Part shown: in pieces, positions 350-63,346 of the stretch
How the letters are laid out: every line of letters begins with the position of its first letter
How positions within the stretch are numbered: position 1 is the stretch's first letter
Translations under genes and position numbers: made by a program
DNA from: Candidatus Saccharimonadales bacterium
GTDB taxonomy: Bacteria; Patescibacteriota; Saccharimonadia; Saccharimonadales; JACDFO01
Direction of reading: 5' to 3'
NCBI GenBank assembly: GCA_038255465.1
Contig: JBBSLJ010000001.1
Location: 54,274 to 118,273 of the forward strand
DNA: 64,000 nucleotides
The notes under the pieces: model-generated
Seen by the model: the letters and a program-made list of their open reading frames with translations, nothing else
Database searches by the model: none
What the model was told of the DNA's origin: nothing

Positions 350-1792
350 TTAATCCTCTTCTGGCATAATACTTTGACCGTATAGCTGTAATTCTTCGAG
401 CAAGTATTGCTGTTCGCTGCTTAGATCAGTTCGATCCCCAAGTTCACTTAGTTTGTCAAAAAACTTGGCAAGCCTACTGGAAGTACCTCCGCCCAGCAAC
501 CGATGTTTTCTGAACGTTTCCCATGCAGCCCGATCTTCGTCATGCATAGTATTTGGAAAATTTCGGGCACGATAGAGCATCAGCAATGCTTGTAAGCGCT
601 GGTCTTTAAACTTTGGATTAAGCGTAGCAAGCTCGTCCGGTTGGGCAGCCCTAACTAAACTCATATTGATTTTATCTTGGCTGCTAAAGAAGTCCTCATA
701 CAGCCGAGCATCTACTTCTAGCTCGTCTTCGAGCAGCCTTGCTTGTTGTTTTTTGTCCATAATTTCAAGGCTTTGGGTTAGCTTTTTGCATAGTGCGGTT
801 TGGATTTTTTGAAGCTTCTTAAAATTTGCCTGGAATACCGCCGGGTCAAGCGCTAATCTTTCCTGGCTCGCACTATCGAGTACGTTTAACTGCGCTACTG
901 CTGGGCAGCGGTTATATTTCAGTGTCTTTACTGGCAACCGCGGACCCGTGTCATCCTTGCGCATACGCCAGGCAGTAACCAGCTCAGCCGGCTCAAGTTC
1001 TAAAAAAGGCGTTGGGTCATAACGTAAGTCAAAAACTAACGCCGAACCTGACTGACGTGGATGCTCGCAGAGGGTTGCAACGACGGTTGTCTTTTCGTAT
1101 TCAGCAGCATATTTGCCTGAGGTATATACAAATGGCTGACCACTCTGAATAAGCTGTTGTATCTTGTTTTTGTCTCTTAGAGCGAGTAAATAATCAAAAA
1201 GCTTAGGTTGCTTTGATTTAATCAGCCGGGCAATGTCGATACATGCCCAAACATCACTGAGCGCATCATGAGCATTTTGATGATCAATATTATTTATAGC
1301 AGCCAGCATTTCAAGACGATTAGTTGGTGCGCCTTTTTTATCTACCGGCCACCGAATACCTGTTGGTCTGAGCGCTCTGGTCATTCTTACTAAGTCCAAT
1401 AAATCCCATCGTGATCGCCCGTCGTTCCATTGCCACTCATAAGCATCGTAGTAATTGCGGTACAGCAAAAAACGCATAAACTCGTCATCGAACCTGACGG
1501 TATTAAAACCTAAAAATATGGTGTCCGGCAGGGCTATCTCGGCAAAAAATAATTTTAAAAATTCAGCTTCTGTTATACCTTCTTGAATGGTTTTCTGCGG
1601 TGTAATGCCAGTAATCAGGATAGCGTCCGGTTCCGGCACGATCTCATCTGTCATTTTAATAAGAACATTGTGTGGTTCACCAATGGGCTGCAAGTTCATA
1701 TCAGTTCGCTGGCCGGCAAACTGCATAATGCGGGCATCACGCGGATTAATACCTGACGTTTCTAAATCATAAAAGTAAAAAGTATTAGCCAT
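350..1792 (-). CDS. sbcB: Exodeoxyribonuclease I (DEDDh 3-prime to 5-prime exonuclease)
   Basis: 480-aa ORF. The N-terminal FYDLETSG motif is the DEDDh Exo I signature, and the length and C-terminal SH3-like/helical region are typical of ExoI. Confidence 0.8.
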   Translation of the reverse strand: MANTFYFYDLETSGINPRDARIMQFAGQRTDMNLQPIGEPHNVLIKMTDEIVPEPDAILITGITPQKTIQEGITEAEFLKLFFAEIALPDTIFLGFNTVRFDDEFMRFLLYRNYYDAYEWQWNDGRSRWDLLDLVRMTRALRPTGIRWPVDKKGAPTNRLEMLAAINNIDHQNAHDALSDVWACIDIARLIKSKQPKLFDYLLALRDKNKIQQLIQSGQPFVYTSGKYAAEYEKTTVVATLCEHPRQSGSALVFDLRYDPTPFLELEPAELVTAWRMRKDDTGPRLPVKTLKYNRCPAVAQLNVLDSASQERLALDPAVFQANFKKLQKIQTALCKKLTQSLEIMDKKQQARLLEDELEVDARLYEDFFSSQDKINMSLVRAAQPDELATLNPKFKDQRLQALLMLYRARNFPNTMHDEDRAAWETFRKHRLLGGGTSSRLAKFFDKLSELGDRTDLSSEQQYLLEELQLYGQSIMPEED

Positions 1793-2249: not shown

Positions 2250-3527
2250 CTAGTACTCCAAACGGCCAATTTCTGGACTGCCAATTTGGATACGATTACC
2301 TGGTTCAATGTTCTGACGAACTAACCCGTGCATGATTCCCATTTTTTTCATAATGTCGCGCAAGCGCTGCGTACCGTGAAAATTGTCAAAATCTGTTCGT
2401 TTAGCAAATCGCTCGATCTTCTTGCCGGTGACCACATAAACAGTTTCGTTTTTAACAACCTGCCACGCCTCATCATCACTAATTGTTAATACTGGCAGCG
2501 CATCCTCATCCTGCTCGCTGGCAAGTTGCAGCGCCCGTTCGGCTTGAACAATCTTGTGAAGCCTAATGAGAAGCTGCTTTACATTCTGTTTGCTCATTGA
2601 CGATATCGCCACCACTTCGACGTGTTTTGGAACAGCCTTTTTTAACTGCTTTAAAAGGTCTTCAACTATATCCTTATCAAGTCCTTCGATTTTGGTCAGT
2701 GCTACTATCTGAGGTCGCTCAGTCAGATCAATTCTATATGCCTTAAGTTCGTTATAAATAGTCTTGAACGCAGTCGTTAGATCATCAGTATATGCATCAA
2801 TAAGGTGCAGTAGCACGCCAGATCGCTCTACATGCCGCAAAAATTCATCCCCCAGGCCCTTCCCTTGACTAGCACCTTCAATTAAACCGGGAATATCAGC
2901 AATCAGTATGCTGGCGCTGTCACCTAAATCAACCACGCCAAGGTTTGGAGTCAAGGTTGTAAACGGATAGTTGGCGATTTCGGGTTTTGCGTTACTAACG
3001 CTAGCCAGAAAGGTGGATTTACCTGCATTTGGCAGTCCTACAAGACCAACATCGGCTATCATCTTAAGCTCAAATACCAATTCTTTTTCTTCGCCGTCTT
3101 CGCCTTTTTCTGCCACACGAGGCACCTGACGTGTACTTGATGTAAAGTGGGCGTTGCCAAATCCGCCCTTGCCGCCTTTTGCAATTACAACCTTTTGACC
3201 GTCAAAGGTCATATCGACCAACAGATTACCCTCGGGGTCGTTTATAGTCGTACCGACAGGTACTGCAATTATCAGTTCCTGGCCGTTTCTGCCGTGTTTT
3301 CTGCGTTGAGTACCAGGTTGACCAGATGATGCTACCAATAGTTTTTGAAAACGAAAGGCTGCAAGCGTGTTCTGATTTCGGCTGGCCTCTAAAATAATAT
3401 TGCCGCCAGTACCGCCATCACCACCATCAGGCCCGCCTTTGTCTACAAATTTTTCTTGACGAAATGAAACAGCACCGTTGCCGCCGTTACCTGCTTTTAC
3501 TTGTACTACTGCCTTATCTACAAACAT
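2250..3527 (-). CDS. obg: GTPase Obg
   Basis: 425 aa. N-terminal glycine-rich Obg fold (GNGGNGAVSFRQEKF, GGPDGGDGGTGG), a G-domain with GLPNAGKST, and a C-terminal Obg_CT/TGS-like tail. Confidence 0.9.
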   Translation of the reverse strand: MFVDKAVVQVKAGNGGNGAVSFRQEKFVDKGGPDGGDGGTGGNIILEASRNQNTLAAFRFQKLLVASSGQPGTQRRKHGRNGQELIIAVPVGTTINDPEGNLLVDMTFDGQKVVIAKGGKGGFGNAHFTSSTRQVPRVAEKGEDGEEKELVFELKMIADVGLVGLPNAGKSTFLASVSNAKPEIANYPFTTLTPNLGVVDLGDSASILIADIPGLIEGASQGKGLGDEFLRHVERSGVLLHLIDAYTDDLTTAFKTIYNELKAYRIDLTERPQIVALTKIEGLDKDIVEDLLKQLKKAVPKHVEVVAISSMSKQNVKQLLIRLHKIVQAERALQLASEQDEDALPVLTISDDEAWQVVKNETVYVVTGKKIERFAKRTDFDNFHGTQRLRDIMKKMGIMHGLVRQNIEPGNRIQIGSPEIGRLEY

Positions 3528-3608
3528 ATCATTAGTCTACCTAAACCATTACTGATAATAAAACAGGGCTAGTGCAGCCCTGTTTGCTTGGTACTATTCT
3601 AACACTTA

Positions 3609-4676
3609 TTAGTAAATATATCTAAAATTAGCTGCCTGTTCGGCAGTCATTGTCCTGCTACTTACACGACCCCATCCCGATACGTTCATCTCAGATATAT
3701 GCACAGTACCGTCAGCGTCAACAGATTCTACATAGCCCACATGGCCGTAAAAATCACGAGGTGGGGTCCAAATTACTGCACCTGCAGCCGGCGTGGTACC
3801 GGTAGCTAAGCCAGAGCGAGAGCTTAGATTAAGCCAAGTGCTGGCATTCCCCAGATTGCTTGGTACAGGACGACCAATTTGCGCACGTTTAACTGCTACA
3901 TACCAGGTGCAATAGCCGTAGTCATACCCGTTGCTACCATAGATTGGCGCGTAGCCGCCCCAAGCAAAGCCACCTGATCCAGACATCCGGGCAGTTGTGC
4001 GTGTCACAGGCTGGATACCATCTGGAATCATAATTCGTTGGCCTTCAACCAAACCGCTTACCTCGGCATCATTGAACTCAATAATAGCTTGTTTAGCAGC
4101 ATTAAATCGTGTTGCGAGAGCTTCAGGCGTATCGCCGCTCTTAACCGTATAAATTAACCCATTAACGGGCGGAATAACAATCACCTTACCCACGTCAATT
4201 GTTGCACCGGATAAACTATTACTCCAACGCAGACTGTCTGAAGTAACGCCAAATTTTTCTGCAATACTGGCGACTGTATCACCCGACTGTACGGTGTAGT
4301 CCCGAATGTCACGACGTGATTTTGTAGCCGTTGAAACTACCTGAGTCTTTGCAATAATTTTTTCGTCTGCGGGTGAGATACTGAGCTGTGCGTTAACAGA
4401 ATCGGCATTGTTTTTAACTGATACCGCTTCGTCTAAACGTGCCAAATTTGCGACATGGGCCGCAATATCAGCTGATGATAATTCATCAAGTGGGTTTGAA
4501 TTCGATGCATCAGCAGTGCTGGCTAGCGCATTTTGCTTACTGGTCTGTCCTGTTGGTGTGCTGTTTACAATAAAAACAATGACACCTACAAGCAAAGCAA
4601 TGTTTGCTGTGAGTAGGCTGTATCTAATAAACCTCTTTTGAGATTTAGCGATACGACGACGGAAACTCCGTCGCAC
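3609..4676 (-). CDS. Membrane-anchored peptidoglycan hydrolase with LysM repeats and a C-terminal CHAP domain
   Basis: N-terminal TM helix and two LysM-like repeats (YTVQSGDTVASIAEKFGV, YTVKSGDTPEALATRF). The C-terminal CHAP domain has a catalytic Cys (GYCTWYVA) and His (GHVGYV). Confidence 0.75.
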   Translation of the reverse strand: MRRSFRRRIAKSQKRFIRYSLLTANIALLVGVIVFIVNSTPTGQTSKQNALASTADASNSNPLDELSSADIAAHVANLARLDEAVSVKNNADSVNAQLSISPADEKIIAKTQVVSTATKSRRDIRDYTVQSGDTVASIAEKFGVTSDSLRWSNSLSGATIDVGKVIVIPPVNGLIYTVKSGDTPEALATRFNAAKQAIIEFNDAEVSGLVEGQRIMIPDGIQPVTRTTARMSGSGGFAWGGYAPIYGSNGYDYGYCTWYVAVKRAQIGRPVPSNLGNASTWLNLSSRSGLATGTTPAAGAVIWTPPRDFYGHVGYVESVDADGTVHISEMNVSGWGRVSSRTMTAEQAANFRYIY

Positions 4677-4928
4677 GTTTTTTGATTGAGGCGTGAGCCG
4701 TCGGCTCAGTGTTGCTGTTTGTGTACGAATGCTTGCTCCTATTGGCGTCTAAAACGCCAGAAAGTAATCATGGTTCTTAATTGTTAAATTTGGAGGTAAC
4801 GTTGTCAATTCCCGGGTTTAAATGTAAAAAAGCATGATTACGTGGTAACACTTTTGCATACTGCTTAGGTGTTACTGAGAAATTGTAGCAAAAAAGACTT
4901 AAAAAAACAAGTTTTTATATCTCTGGTG

Positions 4929-4960
4929 ACCCCTGTTAAATATTTTCTTCACCCCTGTTA
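4929..4960 (-). promoter_or_regulatory. Two tandem copies of the CCCCTGTTA(A) motif (4929..4940 GACCCCTGTTAA; 4949..4960 TCACCCCTGTTA) in the mltG/LysM-CHAP intergenic region
   Basis: Direct repeats about 20 bp apart, 260-280 bp upstream of the LysM/CHAP hydrolase start on the minus strand. Confidence 0.4.
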
Positions 4961-50201: not shown

Positions 50202-50549
50202 TTAAGACCATTCACGCGACTGGTTTTTCTTTTCTTTCATTTCAAAAGCTTTTGCGAGGTCAATATTTAGGTGATTACACAGGTCGAGCAAGTACCAAAA
50301 CACGTCCGCTGCCTCTTCTTCTAAATCATGCACACGTGAGTTTTTATCCGTTTTTATGCCGCTCGCTTTTCTGGTGGCCTTCGCAAACTCACCGACTTCT
50401 TCTAGAAACAACATAAAAATTTCAGACACGGATTCGTCAGCAAAACCCCGCTCTGTCACCATTTTTTCCACGTATTTCTGATATTCGGATACTGTCATAG
50501 TTCTATTGTAACAACTTAAGATGCTTAAGGTTTCATTCCCTAAGTTCAT
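50202..50549 (-). CDS. MazG-like nucleotide pyrophosphohydrolase domain protein
   Basis: Contains EEVGEFAKA ... EEAADVFWYLLDLCNHLNIDL, the all-alpha NTP-PPase EExxE/EExxD signature. The true start is probably an internal Met (MTVSEYQ). Confidence 0.6.
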   Translation of the reverse strand: MNLGNETLSILSCYNRTMTVSEYQKYVEKMVTERGFADESVSEIFMLFLEEVGEFAKATRKASGIKTDKNSRVHDLEEEAADVFWYLLDLCNHLNIDLAKAFEMKEKKNQSREWS

Positions 50550-50624
50550 AGCCTACAATTTCAGTTGGACCAGAGAGTTCAAGCTGCACCTTTACAACCA
50601 TCGACCACATGAGGAGCGAGTAGC

Positions 50625-51365
50625 ATGCAACTGACGGAAGAAGCAGTAGCCAACGCCATTATCTGGAGCGCCGACGTCGATACCACCGAAACCTTGCTGG
50701 CTCAGGTAGAGAAGATGCCTAGGCTTTCGATCGTCAAAATCGACCGCCTGTTCGTGGCAAAGAACGGCTACGACATCTTCGACGCCCTTCGTGAGCGAGA
50801 CAAGCACGTCTTCTACGACGCCAAGATCGTCGAAATCCCAAGCAAAAGCGAGGCGCTGGCCATAGCCGAGTGCCGGCATCAGCCCTGGATGCTCAACTGC
50901 ATGGCCGGAATTGTGTCTGGTGGTGATTTTAGCCACGACGACCCCGATAAAATCGAAGCGCTGATGCGTTTTGCTGATGCCTGCCTCAGCGCAGACGTCC
51001 GTCCCTGTGCCGTGACGGTACTCACAAGCAAAAAGCCAGAGCTGGTCACCGAGGAATTCGGCCGCAGTGCCATCGATCAGGTGCTGTACTACGTCGAGCT
51101 CCTGGTGACTGCCGGTTTCACAGATGTCGTCTGCTCGCCAGCAGAGATCGAAGCCATCCGCTCGCGGTTCGAAGTCGACCTCGACATCAACACGCCCGGC
51201 TTGCGCCGCAATTCATCTGACACCGGCGACCAAGCCCGCGTCGCTACGCTTGGCTCGGCTCTTCGTTCTGGTGCCACTCGTGGCGTCATTGGTCGTGACC
51301 TGACCAAAGGCAACCCCGCTCAGAACTTTGACGACATCGTCGCCGAAGCCGTCGCCGAAGTCTGA
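50625..51365 (+). CDS. pyrF: Orotidine 5-prime-phosphate decarboxylase
   Basis: 246 aa. VKIDRLFVAKNG, VFYDAKIVEIPSK (matching the DxKxxDIP motif) and the C-terminal GRDLTKGNP. Confidence 0.7.
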   Translation: MQLTEEAVANAIIWSADVDTTETLLAQVEKMPRLSIVKIDRLFVAKNGYDIFDALRERDKHVFYDAKIVEIPSKSEALAIAECRHQPWMLNCMAGIVSGGDFSHDDPDKIEALMRFADACLSADVRPCAVTVLTSKKPELVTEEFGRSAIDQVLYYVELLVTAGFTDVVCSPAEIEAIRSRFEVDLDINTPGLRRNSSDTGDQARVATLGSALRSGATRGVIGRDLTKGNPAQNFDDIVAEAVAEV

Positions 51366-51394
51366 TCCCCAGACCGACAATCCGAAAGGACGTT

Positions 51395-52063
51395 ATGACA
51401 ACGCTCGAAGGAAAGAAGGAGTTGGTTGCCGATTTGCTTTATGCGCTCGGCGCCATCCAGATCGACACTGAAGTCGGATTCCGGCTCAAGTTGCACGAAA
51501 GGCTGCCCAGCGCACCGCTTTCGCCGATCTATCTGAACCTGAGGACACCGGATCATTCTAAGAACCCGGGACCTCTGACGCCAGAGATCATGCAACTCAT
51601 CGCAGAGTTGATGGATGAGATGTCGCTCGGTCTGGGCAAAGAGTGCTTTACCGGCATCCCGGAAGCTGGCGAGCCTTTTGCGGACTATTTCGAGAAGATC
51701 GTCGGCGCAAGCCGCCTCCGCCTGCAGAAGGTAGAAAAAAACGGCAAGCGCTGGATCGACGATCATTTCACAGGCGATTTCGAGCCGGGCGACCGCTGCA
51801 TCATCATCGACGACCTCATCACGCAGGCCGATAGCAAGCTGGAGGCCATCCGTGCTTTGACACACTCGACGCTCCAAATATCCGGAGTGCTAGTCGTTGT
51901 CGACCGTATGCAGGGAGGTCGTCAGCAGCTTATGGCAGCGGGTCACCGGCTATTCGCCATTTTCACGCTGCACGAACTGCTCAGCCATTACGCCCGGAAG
52001 GGCTACATCGATCAGTCGCAGGCCGAGACAGTGCTGAAGTACATCGCGGTCAACCAGGCCTGA
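51395..52063 (+). CDS. Orotate phosphoribosyltransferase-like protein with a non-canonical PRPP loop
   Basis: 222 aa. The OPRT-like N-terminus (LGAIQID...GFRLKLH...SPIYLNLR) is present. The PRPP motif reads CIIIDDLITQADS where VEDVITTGGS is expected. The C-terminal VVVDRMQGG is present. Confidence 0.6.
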   Translation: MTTLEGKKELVADLLYALGAIQIDTEVGFRLKLHERLPSAPLSPIYLNLRTPDHSKNPGPLTPEIMQLIAELMDEMSLGLGKECFTGIPEAGEPFADYFEKIVGASRLRLQKVEKNGKRWIDDHFTGDFEPGDRCIIIDDLITQADSKLEAIRALTHSTLQISGVLVVVDRMQGGRQQLMAAGHRLFAIFTLHELLSHYARKGYIDQSQAETVLKYIAVNQA

Positions 52064-52135
52064 ACTCTCACCCCAGGGCCGCCGGTCCCTAGCGTCACGC
52101 ATCCAGCGTGAATCTAAAACCGGCACCTACCAAGT

Positions 52136-52264
52136 TTATTCATTATGTTTAGTGGCTAAATGCCACAACTGGCAGTGCCGACACTTATAAGCTCTTAATT
52201 TGGCACCATGCTGCCAGTCAGCAACCACGCCAGCAGCTGTCGCTTGGGTCTTTGTATCGAAAAC
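52136..52264 (-). CDS. Possible very small Cys/His-containing protein (hypothetical)
   Basis: Only the C-terminal part of ORF 52136..52387 is plausible (MVFDTKTQ...YKCRHCQLWHLATKHNE). The ORF-track 5-prime extension runs through a terminator hairpin and a 34-bp palindrome. Confidence 0.2.
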   Translation of the reverse strand, partial: VFDTKTQATAAGVVADWQHGAKLRAYKCRHCQLWHLATKHNE

Positions 52265-56318: not shown

Positions 56319-56513
56319 CCGCCAAGCCCATGCAAGCATAAGCAAAACAAAAAAGCACTATCGAAAGTCGATAATGCCCATTTGGTGGAGCACCTTGAAA
56401 AAAGTTCACCCCTCATTGTCGAGGAAGTGCATCGCTGGCGCGATTTACTCTGGGACGACTATTTAGATTATCAGCACCACAAGAAATACTCATTAGAGAT
56501 ACATAACCCCTGA
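56319..56513 (+). pseudogene. Start-less 64-codon remnant homologous to the 3-prime end of the serine recombinase gene
   Basis: An in-frame stop lies immediately upstream and there is no Met. It encodes ...NKKALSKVDNAHLVE..., against NKKALSGMDNAHLVE at the recombinase C-terminus. The underlying DNA is about 50 nt of near-identity. Confidence 0.5.
56343..56393 (+). repeat. Left copy of the imperfect direct repeat
   Basis: Matches 61743..61793 at 16+8+13 identical positions, with a 7-nt divergent block and one transition. Confidence 0.7.
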
Positions 56514-56634
56514 GGGTATACCCCTCTATATAGGAACAGGTGGGGCAGGTAGAATTTAGTAAGAGCTCGATGATGAGTATTAACTGCATCAAGTATCTAT
56601 CTTAATTATAACATTTAGGGCTTTGGGGCTTGCT

Positions 56635-57360
56635 CTACTGCTTAGTAAGCTGAAAAACTAAGTTATCACATTCAAGCTGGGCTGTTCCAATAGCGGCGAC
56701 CATTACATCTGGCTCTATAGTATGAAGACCTGGCTTCTCCCAAGGATCAGCGACCAAGAAATTACCCTTTTCGTCATTCCCGTAGATGACAACACTATGA
56801 TTCCATGCTTTACCGTTAACATCATCTGGCTTTGTCTCATTCTCGCCGACATTACTTGTCCTGCCCTTACCGTACAAAGTATCAAACGATAGACATGGTA
56901 ATACGGGTCCATTCATTAGTAATCCATAAAGTAGACTGCTCTTAATAGCATTCACAATGTGCAAATCACCGCCAGATTGAATAAATTCTATGTATGCCTG
57001 ACAATATGCGTCGTTCCATAATTCGCCAAGACTAGGCACTTTTAACCCAGACTTCCTTGCTTCTAGTCGCTCAATAATCTCTGCTGGAGAGAGCTTAGAC
57101 CAAGACTGGTCAATAACTTGAACATCTGCCGTGTAAAGCACGACATCAAAGCCAAGCGTCTTACACCAAGTTGCCATTTGTTGATTGATAGTGCCGAAGT
57201 TCTCACCTTTTTCATTTTTTACTTGAGGTACTTTGGAGGAAACATCATCAACGCTAATCTCGTTACCATAGTATTCAAGCAACATACTCAGAGCAGTAGG
57301 GCTACAAGTTGTGTTGGTCGGTTGATATTGGTGCTTGATTTCATATTCTGTCTTATTCAT
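56635..57360 (-). CDS. Papain-like cysteine peptidase, C39-like/BtrH_N-like domain
   Basis: 241 aa. Catalytic Cys within TCSPTALSMLLEYYG, and the downstream His in NHSVVIYG. Confidence 0.55.
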   Translation of the reverse strand: MNKTEYEIKHQYQPTNTTCSPTALSMLLEYYGNEISVDDVSSKVPQVKNEKGENFGTINQQMATWCKTLGFDVVLYTADVQVIDQSWSKLSPAEIIERLEARKSGLKVPSLGELWNDAYCQAYIEFIQSGGDLHIVNAIKSSLLYGLLMNGPVLPCLSFDTLYGKGRTSNVGENETKPDDVNGKAWNHSVVIYGNDEKGNFLVADPWEKPGLHTIEPDVMVAAIGTAQLECDNLVFQLTKQ

Positions 57361-57487
57361 ACACCAATAATAACAGAATTTAGGTCGCCAGAGCGTCGCA
57401 CAATAAAGATTGTGAGACCTACCTCAACAGGGGTAGGGGTTTAATTTTAGCGACATATGAGCTTGTCAAGTGCTTGTTATTTTCCGC

Positions 57488-57500
57488 TCACCCCTGTTAA
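57488..57500 (-). promoter_or_regulatory. Motif TCACCCCTGTTAA about 130 bp upstream of the C39-like gene, with an inverted partial copy AACAGGGGTA at 57427..57436
   Basis: The two half-copies form an inverted pair about 50 bp apart. They flank a TTGACA ... TAAAAT element on the minus strand, whose spacer of only about 14 nt is suboptimal. Confidence 0.4.
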
Positions 57501-57525
57501 AAAACCTATTATACAATAATGACTT

Positions 57526-58641
57526 TTACAGTCCGAAATGGTCTAGGGATTGAGCTAAATGCACTTTACCAACCTCAATTTTCTCACGCACCTCATCAGT
57601 CGGCGACCATGTATATCGTCGTATTCGTAAAGTCATCTTAGACAAAACATATCTTAAACGCATCAGCTCGAATCTCTCATCAAAGTCGGCTGGCTTTTCG
57701 GCTACCTGCCAATAACCATCAAGGAAGTCTTTCATTCGTGAGGGATCAAAAAATGTACTCCAACAAGCAATATCGCTAGTCGGGTCACCGCCAACACACT
57801 CGTCCCAGTCCAAAATACCAGTAACGTCCTTACCGTCAGTTAGTAAGTTCCAATCGGCGAAGTCGTTATGAACTAATACAGCTTGTGGTACGTCTAGCAA
57901 AGGATTGCCTTCATTAAATAGTGTACTTACGGCTTGTGATTGTTCTCCGGTCAAAATGCTTTCTTTAGTCAGCACATCAAGATTAAATGGTAATCCCGCT
58001 CGAACGGCCTCACCAAACGTATCGTGAAGTCCAATCAGTTCGCCTGACTTAGCTTTTTCATTATCAAATGCACCAAAACCGTTAACTTGTATCTGATGTA
58101 GTCGTGCCATCATCCTGCCTATCTGTGGCAATAGCTTGGCTTCATCATCAGGATGTTGTTCCAACCATTTCTTAATTGCTGTACCTGACAACTTTTCTAT
58201 GACTTGAAAGGCGAAGTCATCACCATTTTCATAGTCATGGACAGCTAACGTGTCATAGCTAGGTAAGTCGGACTCTTTTGCTCTTTTTGCAGCTTCCGCC
58301 TCCGCATGAAAGTAACCATTCTTAATACCTTTAGGGTGGCAACGGATAATAACTTCTTTGCCAGATGCAAGCACACCAGACCTAACAGAATTCACGTTAC
58401 CAAGATTAGTCTGTGCCTCTAAATCCAGCGGCTCAATAGCAGCCAGCTTATTTTCACCGAGCACATTGTTAACAGCTCCAACGAGCTCATTATCAGTAAA
58501 ATAACGGTGTCGGTCAGCCCATATATGCCCTGCTTGCTCTGGATCAACGGCACGGTCAGTCTGCCAGTAAAAGACATCTTGCCTGTCGGCTATACCAGCG
58601 TTGATTTTTTCCATATCAAGATTTGTCATTTGTTCAATCAC
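57526..58641 (-). CDS. Aminoglycoside/sugar phosphotransferase (APH) family kinase
   Basis: 371 aa. VLVHNDFADWNLL is the catalytic loop HxDxxxxN, and ILDWDE is the metal-binding motif. Confidence 0.7.
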   Translation of the reverse strand: MIEQMTNLDMEKINAGIADRQDVFYWQTDRAVDPEQAGHIWADRHRYFTDNELVGAVNNVLGENKLAAIEPLDLEAQTNLGNVNSVRSGVLASGKEVIIRCHPKGIKNGYFHAEAEAAKRAKESDLPSYDTLAVHDYENGDDFAFQVIEKLSGTAIKKWLEQHPDDEAKLLPQIGRMMARLHQIQVNGFGAFDNEKAKSGELIGLHDTFGEAVRAGLPFNLDVLTKESILTGEQSQAVSTLFNEGNPLLDVPQAVLVHNDFADWNLLTDGKDVTGILDWDECVGGDPTSDIACWSTFFDPSRMKDFLDGYWQVAEKPADFDERFELMRLRYVLSKMTLRIRRYTWSPTDEVREKIEVGKVHLAQSLDHFGL

Positions 58642-58650
58642 TTTATTACC

Positions 58651-59187
58651 CTAGGTATTTTCCACGATATATTTTGCAGCATCAAGTAGCGTAGGTGCAG
58701 TATATATTGCTTCTGGTGACACCACTTTCTCTCCTGTAGCCGTCTCTACAAGTATTCCACCTTTGCAGCCAGCATTTATGGCAGCTTTTATGTCGGTCTG
58801 TGCGTCGCCAACCATATAAACCTGGGATAGGTCTAAGTCAAAATCCTCTGCCGCTTGTAGCAACATTTTTGGTCCAGGCTTACGCCAATCAGTATTGTCG
58901 GGTCGTTTCATTTCGCCGTTCATATATGTCTTAAGGAACCTTACTCTACTTGGCTCTAGCTGACGTAAGACCTGGTTGTGTATTTGCCAGAACTCTTCTT
59001 CGGTTAATCGTCCTTCTTCAATTCCAGCCTGATTTGTGATTAGAATAACTGCAAAATCATTGTCTGCCAAATACTTTAATCCCTCGATACTGTCGGGGAA
59101 TAATTCTATCTTCTCAACTTTATCGACACGCAAATCTGGTGGATCAACAATAATGGTGCCATCTCGGTCTAGTAGTGCAACTTTCAT
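58651..59187 (-). CDS. HAD-IIIA phosphatase, D,D-heptose-1,7-bisphosphate phosphatase (GmhB)-like
   Basis: With the start at the internal Met (MKVALLDRDGTI) the DxDGT motif is N-terminal, as expected. Also present are RKPGPKML and the GDAQTD motif. The ORF track extends to 59277. Confidence 0.65.
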   Translation of the reverse strand: MKVALLDRDGTIIVDPPDLRVDKVEKIELFPDSIEGLKYLADNDFAVILITNQAGIEEGRLTEEEFWQIHNQVLRQLEPSRVRFLKTYMNGEMKRPDNTDWRKPGPKMLLQAAEDFDLDLSQVYMVGDAQTDIKAAINAGCKGGILVETATGEKVVSPEAIYTAPTLLDAAKYIVENT

Positions 59188-59439
59188 AACTAAATGATAA
59201 CAGGGATAAACAGTATTAGCCACAAAATACCTCAACATAAACCCTAAAGCTTGTCCAAAGCCCTGAAAATGCGTCATAGGGGGCGTTTTAATTGGGGTTT
59301 CTTGTTCACCTAATGCACTTTAATATCACAGTCCATCTGCTTCTGAGATTTTTTTCCATAATTTTGACCCTCAACGCCATTTATTCGTTATTTACTGAAC
59401 ACCAAATCTCGTAAAAACATAGCGAAAGCAACTGAAATT

Positions 59440-59673
59440 TTAGAAATATGTACTGAAACTAAATACTACTTTATTTCGATTTTCTTTAGCTGCCTTAATC
59501 TTCTCATTAAACACTTCACTATTCCTCATGTAATAAAAGAAAGTAGTGGTACTAATCCCACTCCAACGGCACGCTTCAGTGATTGAACTGTTATGTTGCA
59601 AAGCATCCATGAGACTTAGCATCGTTTTATATGTAACTTTTGGTGGTCTTCCTGTAGCTTTTTTAATTTCCAT
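59440..59673 (-). CDS. Small helix-turn-helix protein (possible excisionase/RDF or regulator)
   Basis: 77 aa with GRPPK...ITEACRWSGISTTTFFYY, an HTH-like segment. It is divergent from the recombinase gene. Confidence 0.45.
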   Translation of the reverse strand: MEIKKATGRPPKVTYKTMLSLMDALQHNSSITEACRWSGISTTTFFYYMRNSEVFNEKIKAAKENRNKVVFSFSTYF

Positions 59674-60249
59674 TAAACTCCTTTGTTTTCGGCATTATCT
59701 CTCTTCTCATTATCTCAAATACACAATTTTCGACTTGACAATGCTTATGGTAAAGAGTATAATTATAAGTACGATAGTGAGAGCCTTAGTGTCATTGAAC
59801 AAATAGACACTATGCAGGAATCTCCCCATTAGTTTTTCGATACTTTCTAGTATTGACTGACAAATGGATGATCCATCGAAAGTTCAATCAGAATCAAAAA
59901 CAGCAAGCCCACGCCAAGAAATGGTGGGTGGTTTTGTTGCACCAACAAAAAGGACAGAAGAGTCCTCATTTTTAAGCGTACCTGGTGGATCAAACTATTC
60001 ATCTGAGACTCATCCGCAAACCCATAAACAAATATGTAGTTACGATAAAGCTGACCTGGACGAATATTGCTTATGGTTGTATGGCATTTATGAGGAATCA
60101 ATTATAAACTCAAGTCAACGCACTTAGCGGAAATAGGGGGAGCTCGGCATGTTACTTTTTATCAATCTTCAAAAATACAAATGGCAGTCAAAACACGACT
60201 TTGCCGAGCCGTTCCCTTTGGCTGCCGTTCGTGCATTTGAGGTAGTCTT

Positions 60250-61833
60250 GTGATGGATGAAGCCATTGCTTTATGCCGTGTATCTAGCAAAGAGCAGCTA
60301 GATAGCAACAGCCTTAATCTCCAAGGCGAGAGCGTAGATGCAATGGCCGATGAACTTAAAGTAAAAATTGTCAAGAAGTGGGCGATACAACAGAGTAGCA
60401 AAAAGGGTCAGAATATTAAGCGTAAAGACTTGCAAGAAGCACTGGTACTTTGTCGTAAGAATAAGAAAATAAAGTATTTTTTGGTTGATAAAGTCCACCG
60501 TTACATGCGTGAAATGGAGATGATATTTTACTTTAAGGTACTCTTCAGAGAGCAAGGTGTTAAACTCATCTTCTGTGACCCGGGCCAAAGAGACCTCAAC
60601 GAAGATACGCCAGAAGCAAGTCTCAAACTAGCACAAAAAGCATATGATGCAGAAATAGCCAATGTCGAAAGAAGAGATACTGCACTCAGTCGTATGTCTG
60701 CAAGAGTTGCAGCGGGCTACTATCCCTTTAATACGCATGCGGGCTACAAAAAGACGGAAGCAGAAGATGGCCTACATATACCTGATGAACCAAGATTTGG
60801 TCTACTTCAAGAGGGGTGTCGCTTAATTATCTACAAACAACACACTGTCTCACAGGCTGTTAAATGGATGAATGAAAATGGTTACCTAACAAAAGGCGGC
60901 AAGAAGTTAGATATTAACCACTTTGAGGAGTTCATTGTGGACGAATACTATTGTGGCTTCGTAAAAATTGACGGACCAGACTGGCCAGATAAAGTTCCCG
61001 GCCTACATGTGCCTCTGCTCTCCAAGAGAGAACATGCTCTACTAATCGCCATAATCAAAAAGCGTAACCCTAGAATGAGAAGCATACATAACCCAGAATT
61101 TCCGATGGCTAATATCATACGACATCAAGAATGCGAAGGACTTGGAGGCTATGAGAAATTTGCTGGACATAATCACAACCCTGGTAAAACACGAAAAGGT
61201 ACCCAGAAAGCTCTCAAGCCCGTATACGATTGCAGAGATTGCAGAAAACGTATAGGCAGAGATATGACTCATGAAAACTTCTCAGACTACCTTGAGAGCC
61301 TAGTCTTCATACCAGACGATAAGAGCTTTAAGCATGCCCTGCTGAAAGTCTGGAAGAATCAGCGAGGCTCAAACGCTCAGAGATTACTTGTTTTAAACGC
61401 CAACAAAGATGTAATTGATAAGAAAATCAGGGACACAACCGTAACATATGCCACTGAGAGTGATGAAATCGTAAAGAGCTCACTACGTAAGCTACTGGGC
61501 GAATACAACGACGAGCTACAACAAGCCGAAACCGACATACACGAAGCAAGTAACATAGACTTAGAATCAGATGACTTTGTTAAGTTTGCTTTCCAGCAAG
61601 TAGATACCATGCGAGACAAATGGTGGAAATTGAACTGGAATGATAAAGCGAGGGGTGAACAAATTCTGTTTAATGGCAAAATTTATGTAGATAATGCTGC
61701 AAAAGTTCACACCCCAAATTTGAGTAACATTTACACCTTAGGGACAAACAAAAAAGCACTATCCGGAATGGATAATGCTCATTTGGTGGAGCTGGTGGGT
61801 ACCGCCCCCACGTCCGTCAGTTTAACTGGTTAG
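60250..61833 (+). CDS. Large serine recombinase (resolvase catalytic domain plus recombinase domain plus zinc ribbon)
   Basis: 527 aa. ALCRVSSKEQ carries the catalytic Ser motif. It has a long C-terminal region with a Cys cluster (CRDCRKR). The probable ATG is at 60253. Confidence 0.85.
   Translation: MMDEAIALCRVSSKEQLDSNSLNLQGESVDAMADELKVKIVKKWAIQQSSKKGQNIKRKDLQEALVLCRKNKKIKYFLVDKVHRYMREMEMIFYFKVLFREQGVKLIFCDPGQRDLNEDTPEASLKLAQKAYDAEIANVERRDTALSRMSARVAAGYYPFNTHAGYKKTEAEDGLHIPDEPRFGLLQEGCRLIIYKQHTVSQAVKWMNENGYLTKGGKKLDINHFEEFIVDEYYCGFVKIDGPDWPDKVPGLHVPLLSKREHALLIAIIKKRNPRMRSIHNPEFPMANIIRHQECEGLGGYEKFAGHNHNPGKTRKGTQKALKPVYDCRDCRKRIGRDMTHENFSDYLESLVFIPDDKSFKHALLKVWKNQRGSNAQRLLVLNANKDVIDKKIRDTTVTYATESDEIVKSSLRKLLGEYNDELQQAETDIHEASNIDLESDDFVKFAFQQVDTMRDKWWKLNWNDKARGEQILFNGKIYVDNAAKVHTPNLSNIYTLGTNKKALSGMDNAHLVELVGTAPTSVSLTG
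61743..61793 (+). repeat. Right copy of the imperfect direct repeat (inside the recombinase 3-prime end)
   Basis: See 56343..56393. Confidence 0.7.
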
Positions 61834-62332
61834 TCTGTCCTACAGGCATAGGCTGTTCGAATTACGTTTCACTGCATAAGAACAGTCAAGAAGCAGTGAG
61901 CCGTTTAATCCTAATCTTAGACTGACTACGGATCACTTGTCAGTAGCATCCAGAAAATATGGCGTGATTATGTACTATCTGGCGTCGTATATATCACGGC
62001 TGTCAAAATTAATTAAGCAGCGTACGCTACAGGTGCGAATTGGAAATTACCAAAACGTGCAAGTAGCTGATCTTTAAGATTTGCATCTAAAAAGGTTTTG
62101 CCTATAACGCTGGCAAGCGGCCTGCTGATCTAACCGTTAAAGTCCAACGTCGAGCATAAATTTCAGCCCCTCGTTTGTAGTCACATATTAATACGTGACA
62201 TCCTTATATTATACCACTTATGTCAATAGGAGTACAATGGTCTGCCGAAGAGCAAAGTAATATTATTTAATATATTGCGTTATGTATATAATTGTGCTAT
62301 AATACCGTACATAACATAATAACAGGTTAAGG

Positions 62333-63346
62333 GTGGGCGAACCACGGTTATATCTCGCCCCAGGGAGTCAATATACAATGAGCCTCACACAGCTACAAGC
62401 CTATTACCAGCCTTGGTTAAAAAAGCAGTCTCTTAAGCGTGATCTTAAGAAAATGCTGATTACTGCCGAGAAACAGCTCAAAGCCAAAACTCGCCGCGCT
62501 AAGAGCAAGACGATAGCTGCCATCAACAGACAATATTACATCTCTACTGCTTATGCCGACGCCCGAGTAGCCGCCAGACATAACGAAGATATCGCAATTA
62601 CTATGTTGATTTTGGCCTTTGTAATTGGCTACAGCGCTGCTGCTATGATTTTGGAGTTGTTGATTATTGCTTTCGGCACCGCATTTGTACTTGCTGATAT
62701 CACAAAAATTGATCCTGGTGTATTTATGCTTGTTGCTGGCATGACACTTGGCATTGTCTGCAGTTGGTTGACGTCTTTGCTGCTCAATATGCAGTCCTTG
62801 GCACTTATGGACGGCGCACTAAGAAAGACCAAACGCTCTGTTCGTTCCACTATCCGCAAAAGTCTTCGCTATACTACTCGCGTTACCGAAGCGTGGGTGT
62901 TATTCCTGGGGATTCTTGTTGGTATACCGCTACTTGCCGTTTGGTCTGCATTCTCTATTATAAGTCTTACTGAAATCTCAATGAATCAGCTATTTAGCTA
63001 TGCACCATTCGGTATAACAGCACTGATAGCCTGGGTAGTAATAATGCTTATGGAATATAGTCTGGTACCTTATGTTGCCCTTTTTGAGCCAACCGTACCC
63101 TTGCGACATTTATTGACCCGCAGTTCTCAGCTCGTTAACCGCCGAGGCCGAATATTTATCCTGCTATCCAGCATCCTGTTTGGGGCCTCATTATTTGGCG
63201 CCTATAAACTGGCAGTTTATTCCGAATCAGTACTTGGTGTACATCGCGGCCTGCAATTCTTTAGCTATAGTTTGATAATCGCGCTGCTGGCCAATGCGAT
63301 TATGGTTATGCTGTACCGCAAGCGCAAACTGGCACGCGTCAACTAA
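62333..63346 (+). CDS. Hypothetical polytopic membrane protein
   Basis: 337 aa with a basic N-terminal region and at least six hydrophobic helices; no conserved motif recognised. It is preceded by about 500 bp of AT-rich non-coding DNA. Confidence 0.5.
   Translation: MGEPRLYLAPGSQYTMSLTQLQAYYQPWLKKQSLKRDLKKMLITAEKQLKAKTRRAKSKTIAAINRQYYISTAYADARVAARHNEDIAITMLILAFVIGYSAAAMILELLIIAFGTAFVLADITKIDPGVFMLVAGMTLGIVCSWLTSLLLNMQSLALMDGALRKTKRSVRSTIRKSLRYTTRVTEAWVLFLGILVGIPLLAVWSAFSIISLTEISMNQLFSYAPFGITALIAWVVIMLMEYSLVPYVALFEPTVPLRHLLTRSSQLVNRRGRIFILLSSILFGASLFGAYKLAVYSESVLGVHRGLQFFSYSLIIALLANAIMVMLYRKRKLARVN

Follow-up and report, generated by a model that had tools for sequence, protein, structure and literature searches.

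We describe a 5.4-kb genomic island, at positions 56388..61788 of a 64,000-nucleotide stretch of DNA from a Candidatus Saccharimonadales bacterium (contig JBBSLJ010000001.1, positions 54,274 to 118,273; hereafter the window), that was very probably placed at the 3' end of the transfer-messenger RNA (tmRNA) gene, ssrA, by its own large serine recombinase (LSR), an integrase whose gene contains the attachment site of the element, attP. We put the probability of this reading at about 0.85. The anatomy of the island, the recurrence of its pattern across a family, the empty sites in related species, the uninterrupted forms of the integrase gene and the short core were all established by computation. 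The original prediction for this DNA, an integrative element bounded by two repeat copies of about 50 bp with an LSR at one end, is supported, and the minus-strand ssrA at 61784..62170, which had gone unnoticed, turned out to be its target. The features that define the two ends are as follows.

60250..61833, plus strand: large serine recombinase, integrated-form open reading frame (ORF) of 527 aa; Pfam Resolvase PF00239, E 6.6e-13.
61784..62170, minus strand: ssrA (tmRNA), the integration target; Rfam RF00023 over its full length, 60.9 bits, E 2.4e-21.
61784..61792, no strand assigned: attR core TGGTGGAGC, antisense of the tmRNA 3' terminus; putative crossover GG at 61788..61789.
56383..56391, no strand assigned: attL core TGGTGGAGC, displaced copy of the tmRNA 3' terminus; putative crossover GG at 56387..56388.
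61746..61783, minus strand: island-borne replacement ssrA terminator, hairpin 61754..61780 plus U-run; terminator scan, 11 pairs.
56345..56382, minus strand: the host's original ssrA terminator, hairpin 56353..56379 plus U-run; terminator scan, 12 pairs.
56391..56513, plus strand: displaced recombinase 3' end (the tail), HLEKSSPLIVEEVHRWRDLLWDDYLDYQHHKKYSLEIHNP plus stop, in frame with the left repeat.

The repeat pattern reported earlier occurs exactly twice in the window, with its 22-nt right half at 56370..56391 and 61771..61792, and found no match in 100 dinucleotide-preserving shuffles with up to 3 mismatches permitted. In the best ungapped block (56345..56391 against 61746..61792, offset 5401), 41 of 47 positions are identical, and the similarity of both copies ends abruptly on either side in ungapped comparison. 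The repeat pair was therefore borne out, and its predicted coordinates were right to within about 4-5 nt. The right copy had been described as the end of the recombinase ORF; it does lie in the 3' part of 60250..61833, but the ORF continues 41 nt beyond it. The lower GC content claimed for the segment between the copies was also confirmed: the island has 41.2 % GC compared to 46.7 % in the window and 47.7 % in the 10 kb to its left, with a windowed minimum of 35-37 % at 59-60 kb. Read on the minus strand, the repeat is GCTCCACCA-AATGR-GCATTATC-N7-GATAGTGC-TTTTTTGT, so that each copy opens with the final 9 nt of tmRNA (GCUCCACCA) and continues as a terminator formed by a hairpin and a U-run. 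The differences within N7 are compensatory, the stem being extended by CGA/UCG in the left copy and by C/G in the right copy. One C/T difference adjoins the core (56378 vs 61779).

The 3' end of ssrA, GCUCCACCA, lies at 61784..61792, and this is the only tmRNA gene of the Saccharibacteria genome. It is also matched by an nhmmer profile of Rfam-confirmed Saccharibacteria tmRNAs (E 4.8e-84). ARAGORN called no tRNA and no tmRNA on the window; ssrA was recovered by Rfam instead. The T-loop of these Saccharibacteria tmRNAs (window; L003-L031) is a non-canonical 7-nt GGCRGUA, compared to the usual UUCRANY type, and their Rfam scores are modest, at 48-83 bits. In four loci (L006, L012, L015, L016), the tmRNA 3' end reads ...GCUCCUCCA, with U rather than A as discriminator.

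The recombinase ORF converges on ssrA, crosses the right terminator antisense and stops 50 nt inside the tmRNA gene, and its last 13 residues in the integrated form (LVGTAPTSVSLTG) are antisense tmRNA. The island thereby replaces the ssrA terminator from inside a coding sequence. The island-borne terminator, which is antisense within recombinase codons ...TNKKALSGMDNAH, folds with -18.3 kcal/mol (z -4.3), and the host's original terminator, now parted from ssrA by the island, with -19.1 kcal/mol (z -3.5). The same arrangement recurs in relatives: 19 of 19 recombinase-side flanks fold, directly after ...CCA, as a hairpin plus UUUUUUGUUUGU, with no fewer than five unrelated stem sequences among them. 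In 16 of these 19 flanks, the fold in the tmRNA sense is more stable than that in the recombinase sense (means -13.0 vs -10.3 kcal/mol; Wilcoxon p = 5e-4), because G·U pairs become C·A mismatches in the other sense.

Related loci were collected by a metagenome scan for the repeat pattern, which returned 13 contigs, and by a scan of species-representative genomes with a 15-member recombinase alignment, which returned 20 loci, the named ones all being metagenome-assembled genomes (MAGs) of Saccharibacteria or Saccharimonadales. Within them, tmRNA was located by Rfam and the nhmmer profile; tblastn located the recombinase and the tails. The site is occupied in the window and in 13 other loci (L003, L012, L017-L026, L028; Saccharibacteria MAGs and metagenome contigs): the recombinase 3' end abuts or overlaps the 3' end of ssrA, and on the same strand, 3.1-9.7 kb upstream of the recombinase, there is at least one orphan tail. 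In four further loci, all from species other than that of the window's genome, the site is empty (L005, L010, L011, L015): ssrA is followed by the same type of hairpin and then by unrelated DNA, without a recombinase. Three of these four hairpins (L010, L011, L015) have GAAnnTC loops like that of the window's attL, the loop in L005 being AAACCTT. A MarR gene lies near ssrA in L005, L010 and L015, as it does in the window, on the downstream side in L010.

Decayed copies are also represented. Seven loci (L006, L007, L032-L036) hold remnants, one of which (L036) has a recombinase remnant fused directly to a tail, and the recombinase is frameshifted in L028 and N-terminally truncated in L012. Upstream of its resident island, L018 carries four tandem scars at 3038..4940, each composed of a hairpin, TGGTGGAGC and a tail and spaced 500-800 bp apart; in the two most distal ones, a stop replaces the conserved Trp at tail codon 16. 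The scars seem to document four or more earlier insertions, after which internal deletions took place.

Comparison of these loci narrows down the attachment core. A 9-bp core is the sole block common to attL, attR and attP across the 14 islands, and in most loci, attL and attR share just TGG(T/A)GGAGC plus one or two bases. The core is therefore about 9 bp long, as expected for a serine integrase. To the left of the core, attL has a host-specific terminator and attR a different hairpin that belongs to the recombinase gene, in which the codons ...LGTNKK give the U-run. To the right, attR enters the tmRNA T-arm, and attL and attP run on into ACCTCGAAAAAAGTTCACCCCTCAT, which hardly varies in its DNA sequence (codons 1-10). 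The repeat in the window extends to 47 bp because the host terminator and the island terminator share a hairpin family (GCACTATC-N7-GATAATGC).

The crossover dinucleotide is most likely the second GG of TGGTGGAGC. Polymorphisms between attL and attR bar crossover at several positions (T/A at -6 in L017, C/G at -2 in L021 and L003, A/T at -10 in L019), and dyad symmetry in the reconstructed attP and attB reaches its maxima, 8.4 and 6.1 of 20 compared to a background of about 4.5, at this GG. Two other placements were tried and rejected. A crossover in the U-run or hairpin conflicts with the unrelated attL and attR hairpins of most loci, which have no shared A-run, and the hairpin loop as dyad centre fails in the window, whose two loops have no in-register shared dinucleotide. 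An outward shift of the conserved motif by 3-5 bp in the P' arm compared to the B' arm, as expected for attP and attB of an LSR, is not claimed here, the signal being just a weak maximum at +3 (0.38 vs about 0.25). The predicted attP junction is ...CATTTGGTGGAGC|ACCTTGAAAAAAGTTCACC (in a longer form, ...GGATAATGCTCATTTGGTGGAGC|ACCTTGAAAAAAGTTCACCCCTCATTG), and the predicted attB junction is ...GCCCATTTGGTGGAGC|TGGTGGGTACCGCC (in a longer form, ...AAGTCGATAATGCCCATTTGGTGGAGC|TGGTGGGTACCGCCCCCACG).

The left end of the island carries the piece of the integrase gene that is missing from the right end. In the recombinase frame, the left copy reads ...NKKALSKVDNAHLVE and then continues for 40 further open codons, HLEKSSPLIVEEVHRWRDLLWDDYLDYQHHKKYSLEIHNP, up to a stop; the first ~25-30 nt of this tail are the conserved P' arm of attP. 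Among 22 tails, pairwise differences at codon positions 1, 2 and 3 were 0.34, 0.16 and 0.46 (codons 11-33), and P7, E12 and W21 were invariant except for nonsense codons in decayed scar tails. The position of the stop is kept at about codon 40-46. Tails next to an intact recombinase are open, and several distal scar tails have in-frame stops. In an AlphaFold (AF2) model of the reconstructed long form, the tail is a 33-residue helix (residues 520-552; predicted local distance difference test score, pLDDT, about 80-85). The computed substitution pattern thus shows coding-type constraint on the tail, which looks like real protein.

Protein sequences give a second view of the same C-terminus. A database search with the reconstructed “excised-form” protein returned 131 relatives, the few named ones all from Saccharimonadales or Patescibacteria, and the C-termini of the 120 relatives listed were compared. 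An antisense-tmRNA C-terminus of the form ...(M/L)VEL-x-G-x-x-P-x-S... is present in 58 of the 120 and a variant tmRNA-like one in 15; another 32 have antisense-tRNA-like C-termini, for example GGPGGTRTHDTLLKRQVL and EGPVGLEPTTPCLKGRCSNQLSYGP. The residues flanking the T-loop pair as A/A, V/T, P/G, R/R, E/S and Q/W, which are exactly the codon pairs that arise when the tmRNA T-stem covaries by Watson-Crick pairing, and at the DNA level, all T-stems seen are perfectly complementary. These paired residues mirror T-stem covariation, and the extensions are therefore shaped by the RNA gene and not by protein function. Two of the 120 (P0003 and P0020, on 2.3-2.4-kb contigs) continue instead with HLEKSTPLIFEEIRRWRYLLWDDYIEY... 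and HIEKSSPLIVEEIARWRDLLWEDYFDY..., which are homologous to the window's orphan tail. At the DNA level, L001 and L002 contain an uninterrupted recombinase, hairpin, core and homologous tail.

The integrase itself has the fold of a full LSR according to its structural model. The Resolvase match covers residues 5-144, and the Pfam Recombinase domain PF07508 scores 20.8 bits, just below its 21.1-bit cut-off. Among 32-45 homologs, R10 and S12 are nearly invariant and R58, D60, D80, R84 and R87 are invariant; C295, C328 and C331 are also invariant among recombinase homologs, and H292 is conserved. The AF2 model of the long form (mean pLDDT 88) has a resolvase domain, an alpha-E helix at 121-154, a helical recombinase domain at 182-270, a beta-rich zinc-ribbon region at 290-336 and coiled-coil helices at 357-402 and 406-437, which together would match the pattern of a zinc-ribbon domain with an inserted coiled-coil motif. 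A PDB sequence search with phmmer gave no match. By structure, the best Foldseek matches were full-length LSRs over about 517-532 columns, down to E 1.7e-15 (9dxd, 9dxf, 9dxh, 9y66 and Bxb1 9iu2), with LI integrase 4kis matching the C-terminal domains; the catalytic domains of Sin and gamma-delta match the model at template modeling (TM) scores of 0.7-0.8.

Taken together, we propose the following sequence of events. Recombination takes place inside the ~9-bp core TGGTGGAGC, which is antisense to the tmRNA terminus GCUCCACCA. Upon integration, mature tmRNA remains unchanged, and the native terminator is moved 5.4 kb away, its role being taken over by the hairpin and U-run of the island. The last 40 integrase codons, which encode the conserved helical tail, are severed and left at the far end of the island, and the integrase ORF reads into antisense tmRNA up to a chance stop codon. 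Repeated use of the ssrA site leaves scars. Excision would restore the full-length integrase gene, that is, the long form. The copy in the window is presumably still mobile. Only in an excised element or a tandem array would the enzyme carry the tail helix. The change of C-terminus, together with the convergent transcription of ssrA, may alter the activity or direction of the integrase, and this transcription may damp integrase expression while the element is integrated.

Several points weigh against this account of an island inserted by its own integrase. An excised form, a circular-junction sequence and a same-species empty site were not found for this copy, so that the empty-site comparison suggested with the original prediction yielded empty ssrA sites in related species (L005, L010, L011, L015) but none in the same species. 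The sole other copy found (L040) is integrated and 100 % identical to the window; its 99 %-identical integrase match was rejected as an independent observation because it comes from the same strain. The source run SRR19962009 contains this very island. Homologs of the HAD protein in the left flank reach no more than 70 % identity, and no ssrA was found near them in their loci (L041-L043); the adjacency of the HAD gene and ssrA cannot be demonstrated because gene order in the left flank is not conserved at 65-70 % identity. The placement of the crossover derives from a few polymorphisms and a modest dyad signal (8.4/20 vs about 4.5). L001 and L002 are short contigs that could be junctions of tandem islands rather than free circles, a functional role of the tail is a candidate that rests on its conservation, and the recombination directionality factor (RDF) of the element likewise has candidates (a 77-aa helix-turn-helix, or HTH, protein and an 87-aa ORF, both described below). 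One alternative that draws on some of these points is that the island was inserted by the serine integrase as proposed and has since become immobile, with the repeat and tail as fossils. The missing excised form and same-species empty site, the many decayed relatives (L006, L007, L028, L012, L032-L036) and the C/T difference adjoining the core would fit such a remnant. We consider it unlikely, given that the 527-aa ORF (catalytic residues included), the tail and both terminators are all intact, that the tail still stops at the conserved position and that the two ends carry the same core sequence.

Two other explanations do without insertion by the serine integrase, and we regard both as very improbable. 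The original prediction reasoned that LSRs do not normally generate long direct repeats and favored duplication of a recombinase 3' end, for example from a second, degraded gene, with no att site. In favor of this, coding sequence of the recombinase family follows the left copy, which is in frame, and in some loci (L003, L036) an older recombinase remnant precedes the left site. However, upstream of 56345 there is unrelated intergenic DNA and the start of a HAD gene, with no ...IYTLGT coding, and the segment beside the left copy is displaced C-terminal coding, not a second copy. Moreover, the shared part, the ssrA terminus plus terminator, is also present at empty sites that have no recombinase. 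The sequences to the right differ, with the tail at the left copy and tmRNA at the right copy, and therefore nothing specific to the recombinase is duplicated. The objection to long repeats stands insofar as the core is short (TGG(T/A)GGAGC in most relatives); the inference of a duplicated 3' end does not, the repeat being the last 9 nt of ssrA plus two separate terminators. Even less probable is a tyrosine-integrase island in which the serine recombinase is an unrelated passenger, such as a resolvase or invertase. Tyrosine-integrase islands are classically recognized by an intact tRNA or tmRNA gene (tDNA) together with a displaced 3' fragment (PMC4383910), yet searches of the island ORFs with Pfam and NCBIfam found no tyrosine-recombinase (Phage_integrase) domain, the core is just about 9 bp, and the serine recombinase gene spans the att core in all family loci examined.

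Insertion by the serine integrase leaves two readings of the changed C-terminus, each of which we hold tentatively, at about equal and less than even odds. According to one, these enzymes form an LSR clade, found throughout the candidate phyla radiation (CPR) and specialized on tmRNA and tRNA 3' ends, that uses its own C-terminus as a sensor of the integration state. The free element would produce the long form with a ~40-residue helix; insertion would swap this helix for a meaningless antisense-tDNA peptide, and the highly expressed ssrA would be transcribed into the 3' end of the integrated integrase gene. Directionality or stability would then distinguish the two forms: the long form might integrate, for example, and the short form be excision-competent or silenced. 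Alternatively, insertion may have occurred as proposed while the change of C-terminus has no function, attP merely overlapping the gene end and the native tail and antisense peptide being equally good; McMurdie et al. used the term “trivial explanation” for such incidental overlap in DsiB (PMC3146451). In keeping with the absence of function, RNA covariation rather than protein function shapes the antisense-encoded extensions, whose length after ..VE varies (10-51 aa). In the model, the core comes after the catalytic, recombinase and zinc-ribbon/coiled-coil domains, and the integrase is intact in most of the 14 occupied loci (not in L028 and L012), suggesting that the short form is functional. 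What a functionless tail would leave unexplained is its retention as protein across integrases that are only 47-74 % identical, with P7, E12 and W21 invariant, third codon positions the most variable and the stop kept near codon 40-46. The confident prediction of a 33-residue helix, and the decay of distal scar tails while proximal ones stay open, also argue for a role of the tail.

Between its ends, the island carries three cargo genes, two small ORFs and a promoter-like site.

56635..57360, minus strand: C39-like papain-fold peptidase, cargo; Peptidase_C39_2 E 7.6e-13, Peptidase_C39 E 6.5e-06.
57526..58641, minus strand: APH-family (aminoglycoside/fructosamine-kinase-like) phosphotransferase, cargo; Pfam APH E 9.3e-21.
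58651..59277, minus strand: HAD-IIIA phosphatase with a histidinol-phosphatase-type domain, cargo; TIGR01662 84.2 bits (cut-off 44.6).
59440..59673, minus strand: 77-aa HTH-like protein, divergent from the recombinase; weak Sf6_terminase-like match, E 0.009.
59735..59763, plus strand: sigma-70-type promoter-like site TTGACA-17-TATAAT (12/12); consensus match only.
59864..60127, plus strand: 87-aa small ORF directly upstream of the recombinase; conserved C-terminal motif DLDEYCLWLYGIYEE.

The cargo predicted earlier was mostly recovered: Pfam and NCBIfam support the C39-like peptidase, the APH-family kinase and the HAD-IIIA phosphatase, but the GmhB models fall under their cut-offs and the HTH match is weak. 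The phosphatase scores 96.4 bits with TIGR01656 (cut-off 84.15) and 107.8 bits with PRK08942 GmhB (cut-off 178); we rejected an identity as GmhB, all GmhB models being under their cut-offs, though the protein is GmhB-like. NCBIfam resistance models score the APH-family protein at about 20-25 bits, far under their curated cut-offs, and an identity as an aminoglycoside-resistance enzyme was likewise rejected. The 77-aa HTH-like protein is a candidate regulator or RDF. Three of the 13 other islands have a homolog that is placed and oriented as in the window (L023, 44 %; L025, 51 %; L026, 67 %). The 87-aa ORF has no Pfam or NCBIfam match. In almost every related locus (tblastn matches in L001-L003, L013 and L017-L028), its last ~25 residues (DKADLDEYCLWLYGIYEESI) recur on the upstream side of the recombinase start, at a distance of about 130-200 nt, while its N-terminal part and length vary. 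The ORF could encode a small accessory protein, or the conserved stretch could act as a regulatory element in DNA or RNA. The promoter-like site lies upstream of this ORF and the recombinase, in the AT-rich (35-37 % GC) divergent intergenic region after the HTH gene; the number of such sites in the window is not above shuffle expectation.

Cargo is essentially unshared between the 14 islands. The recombinase alone is common to all of them, and a few small ORFs adjoining it recur in two or three islands (families 1, 2 and 6). There are no phage structural genes in the islands, and a scan of viral contigs returned no relative, leaving a phage origin unsupported. More distant homologs of the recombinase, with about 30 % identity, run antisense into tRNA genes called by ARAGORN: tRNA-Lys(UUU) in L037 and L038, where no distal repeat of at least 9 nt was found within 10 kb, and tRNA-Arg(GCG) in L039, where a 16-bp repeat of the tRNA 3' end lies 5.4 kb upstream. 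Just upstream of the recombinase in L037 (5753..9929) are genes resembling a Zn_ribbon_DnaG primase and an AAA_25 helicase, and therefore some family members may be larger, replication-competent elements. ADP-ribosylglycohydrolase and DUF6508 genes are cargo both in L003 (6977..8290), which targets tmRNA, and in L038 (8279..9481), which targets tRNA-Lys, and pairs of HTH_3 and Peptidase_M78 (ImmA/IrrE-like) genes are found in both L003 and L039. This recurrent cargo may consist of defence or regulatory genes.

Other observations concern the surroundings of ssrA. In L009, an insert of ~180 bp (1384..1590) with its own terminator separates the true ssrA 3' end from the recombinase-side copy, and the 18-nt direct repeat on either side of it (AACCCGCCAGCTCCACCA) extends further into ssrA than the 9-bp core does. 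In L014, the order is recombinase, hairpin and TGGTGGAGCTGGCGGG, followed by unrelated DNA. These two loci suggest a second class of elements, with a crossover further inside the T-arm, that competes for ssrA. Between ssrA and the MarR gene, the window encodes a 337-aa multi-pass membrane protein (62333..63346, plus strand) that belongs to no Pfam family. A 35 %-identical homolog in L003 (2212..3174) lies on the opposite side of ssrA, beyond the island, and MarR adjoins ssrA in L003, L005, L006, L009 and L015; the gene for the 337-aa protein may have moved, or may itself be old island material. Outside the island, a GC-rich stretch at 50500..52250 (52-59 % compared to 40-48 % in its surroundings), which overlaps an ORF at 51395..52063, had no Rfam match at the gathering threshold.

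Phage-encoded LSRs (Bxb1, phiC31, A118/LI integrase) resemble the recombinase described here in domain architecture, in fold and apparently in the short core common to attP and attB. Known phage LSRs target protein-coding or intergenic sequences and are carried on phages, and to our knowledge, their genes do not span attP. In contrast, the island has no phage genes, and its recombinase is so divergent in sequence that phmmer found no PDB match. Broussard and colleagues reportedly described, in 2013, integration-dependent immunity in mycobacteriophages, in which attP lies inside the repressor gene and integration changes the C-terminus of the protein. That system is similar in that integration alters the C-terminus of an element-encoded regulatory protein, but there the repressor is affected, the integrase is a tyrosine recombinase and a degradation tag is removed.

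The closest precedent appears to be the ssrA islands of Dehalococcoides, which carry the serine integrase DsiB (McMurdie et al. 2011; PMC3146451); we liken them by their described anatomy. In both systems, insertion occurs at the 3' end of a single-copy tmRNA gene, an LSR of ~540 aa adjoins ssrA, and tandem arrays, remnants and variable cargo are found. In both, the 3' end of the integrase gene overlaps the att site, with the stop codon outside the island, in ssrA or a neighbouring island, and McMurdie et al. speculated that dsiB is complete only on the circular form (PMC3146451). The hosts differ, being Chloroflexota there and Saccharibacteria of the CPR here, and the islands described here are much smaller, at 3-10 kb. 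Dehalococcoides islands have a conserved six-gene integration module that includes the small serine recombinase DsiA, RecF-, ParB- and Mom-like genes and an embedded tRNA-like locus (PMC3146451), whereas the DsiA-like and RecF/ParB/Mom-like module and the tRNA-like gene were not found in the window's island. The repeat is 20 bp there, compared to the core of about 9 bp here. Here, in addition, the tail is conserved as coding sequence and is seen joined to the gene in two contigs, the replacement ssrA terminator lies inside the integrase ORF, and the same protein family also targets tRNA genes. 

Two other systems share parts of this anatomy. Islander-type tDNA islands are bounded on one side by an intact tDNA, which adjoins the integrase gene, and on the other by a displaced, directly oriented 3' fragment, and they restore the function of the target gene (PMC4383910). 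The elements described here differ in using a serine integrase, in duplicating just 9 nt of the RNA gene and in restoring mainly its terminator; serine integrases were not known to target tDNAs when the Islander islands were described (PMC4383910). Archaeal SSV-type “suicidal” integrases have attP within the integrase gene and target tDNAs, so that integration splits the gene and excision restores it (PMC8371274). Those enzymes are tyrosine recombinases whose gene is cut into two large parts and inactivated, whereas here just the last ~40 of ~554 codons are lost and the known catalytic and DNA-binding domains are kept. According to a review, integrases that split their own gene are exclusive to archaea (PMC8371274). 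Our literature search found no account of such elements in Saccharibacteria.

In textbooks and databases, genes for tRNA and tmRNA have been treated as targets of tyrosine integrases only, a view stated explicitly in PMC4383910, with the DsiB islands so far an isolated exception. The window and about 130 homologs reveal a whole family of serine integrases in Saccharibacteria and Patescibacteria that act on the terminal nucleotides of tmRNA, tRNA-Lys and tRNA-Arg genes. Island finders that need a tyrosine integrase or an ARAGORN tmRNA call will miss these islands, and antisense tDNA makes the C-termini annotated for these integrases artefactual. Being compact and having a defined target that is universally conserved (…GCUCCACCA), a serine integrase of this kind could serve as a reagent for genome engineering. 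If the C-terminus does report the integration state, control of directionality would be built into the att site, with a terminator donated antisense from coding sequence, and these enzymes would be a bacterial, serine-family counterpart of the archaeal “suicidal” integrases. The islands described here look like the main small mobile elements of the ultra-small genomes of the CPR, in which genetic tools are few.

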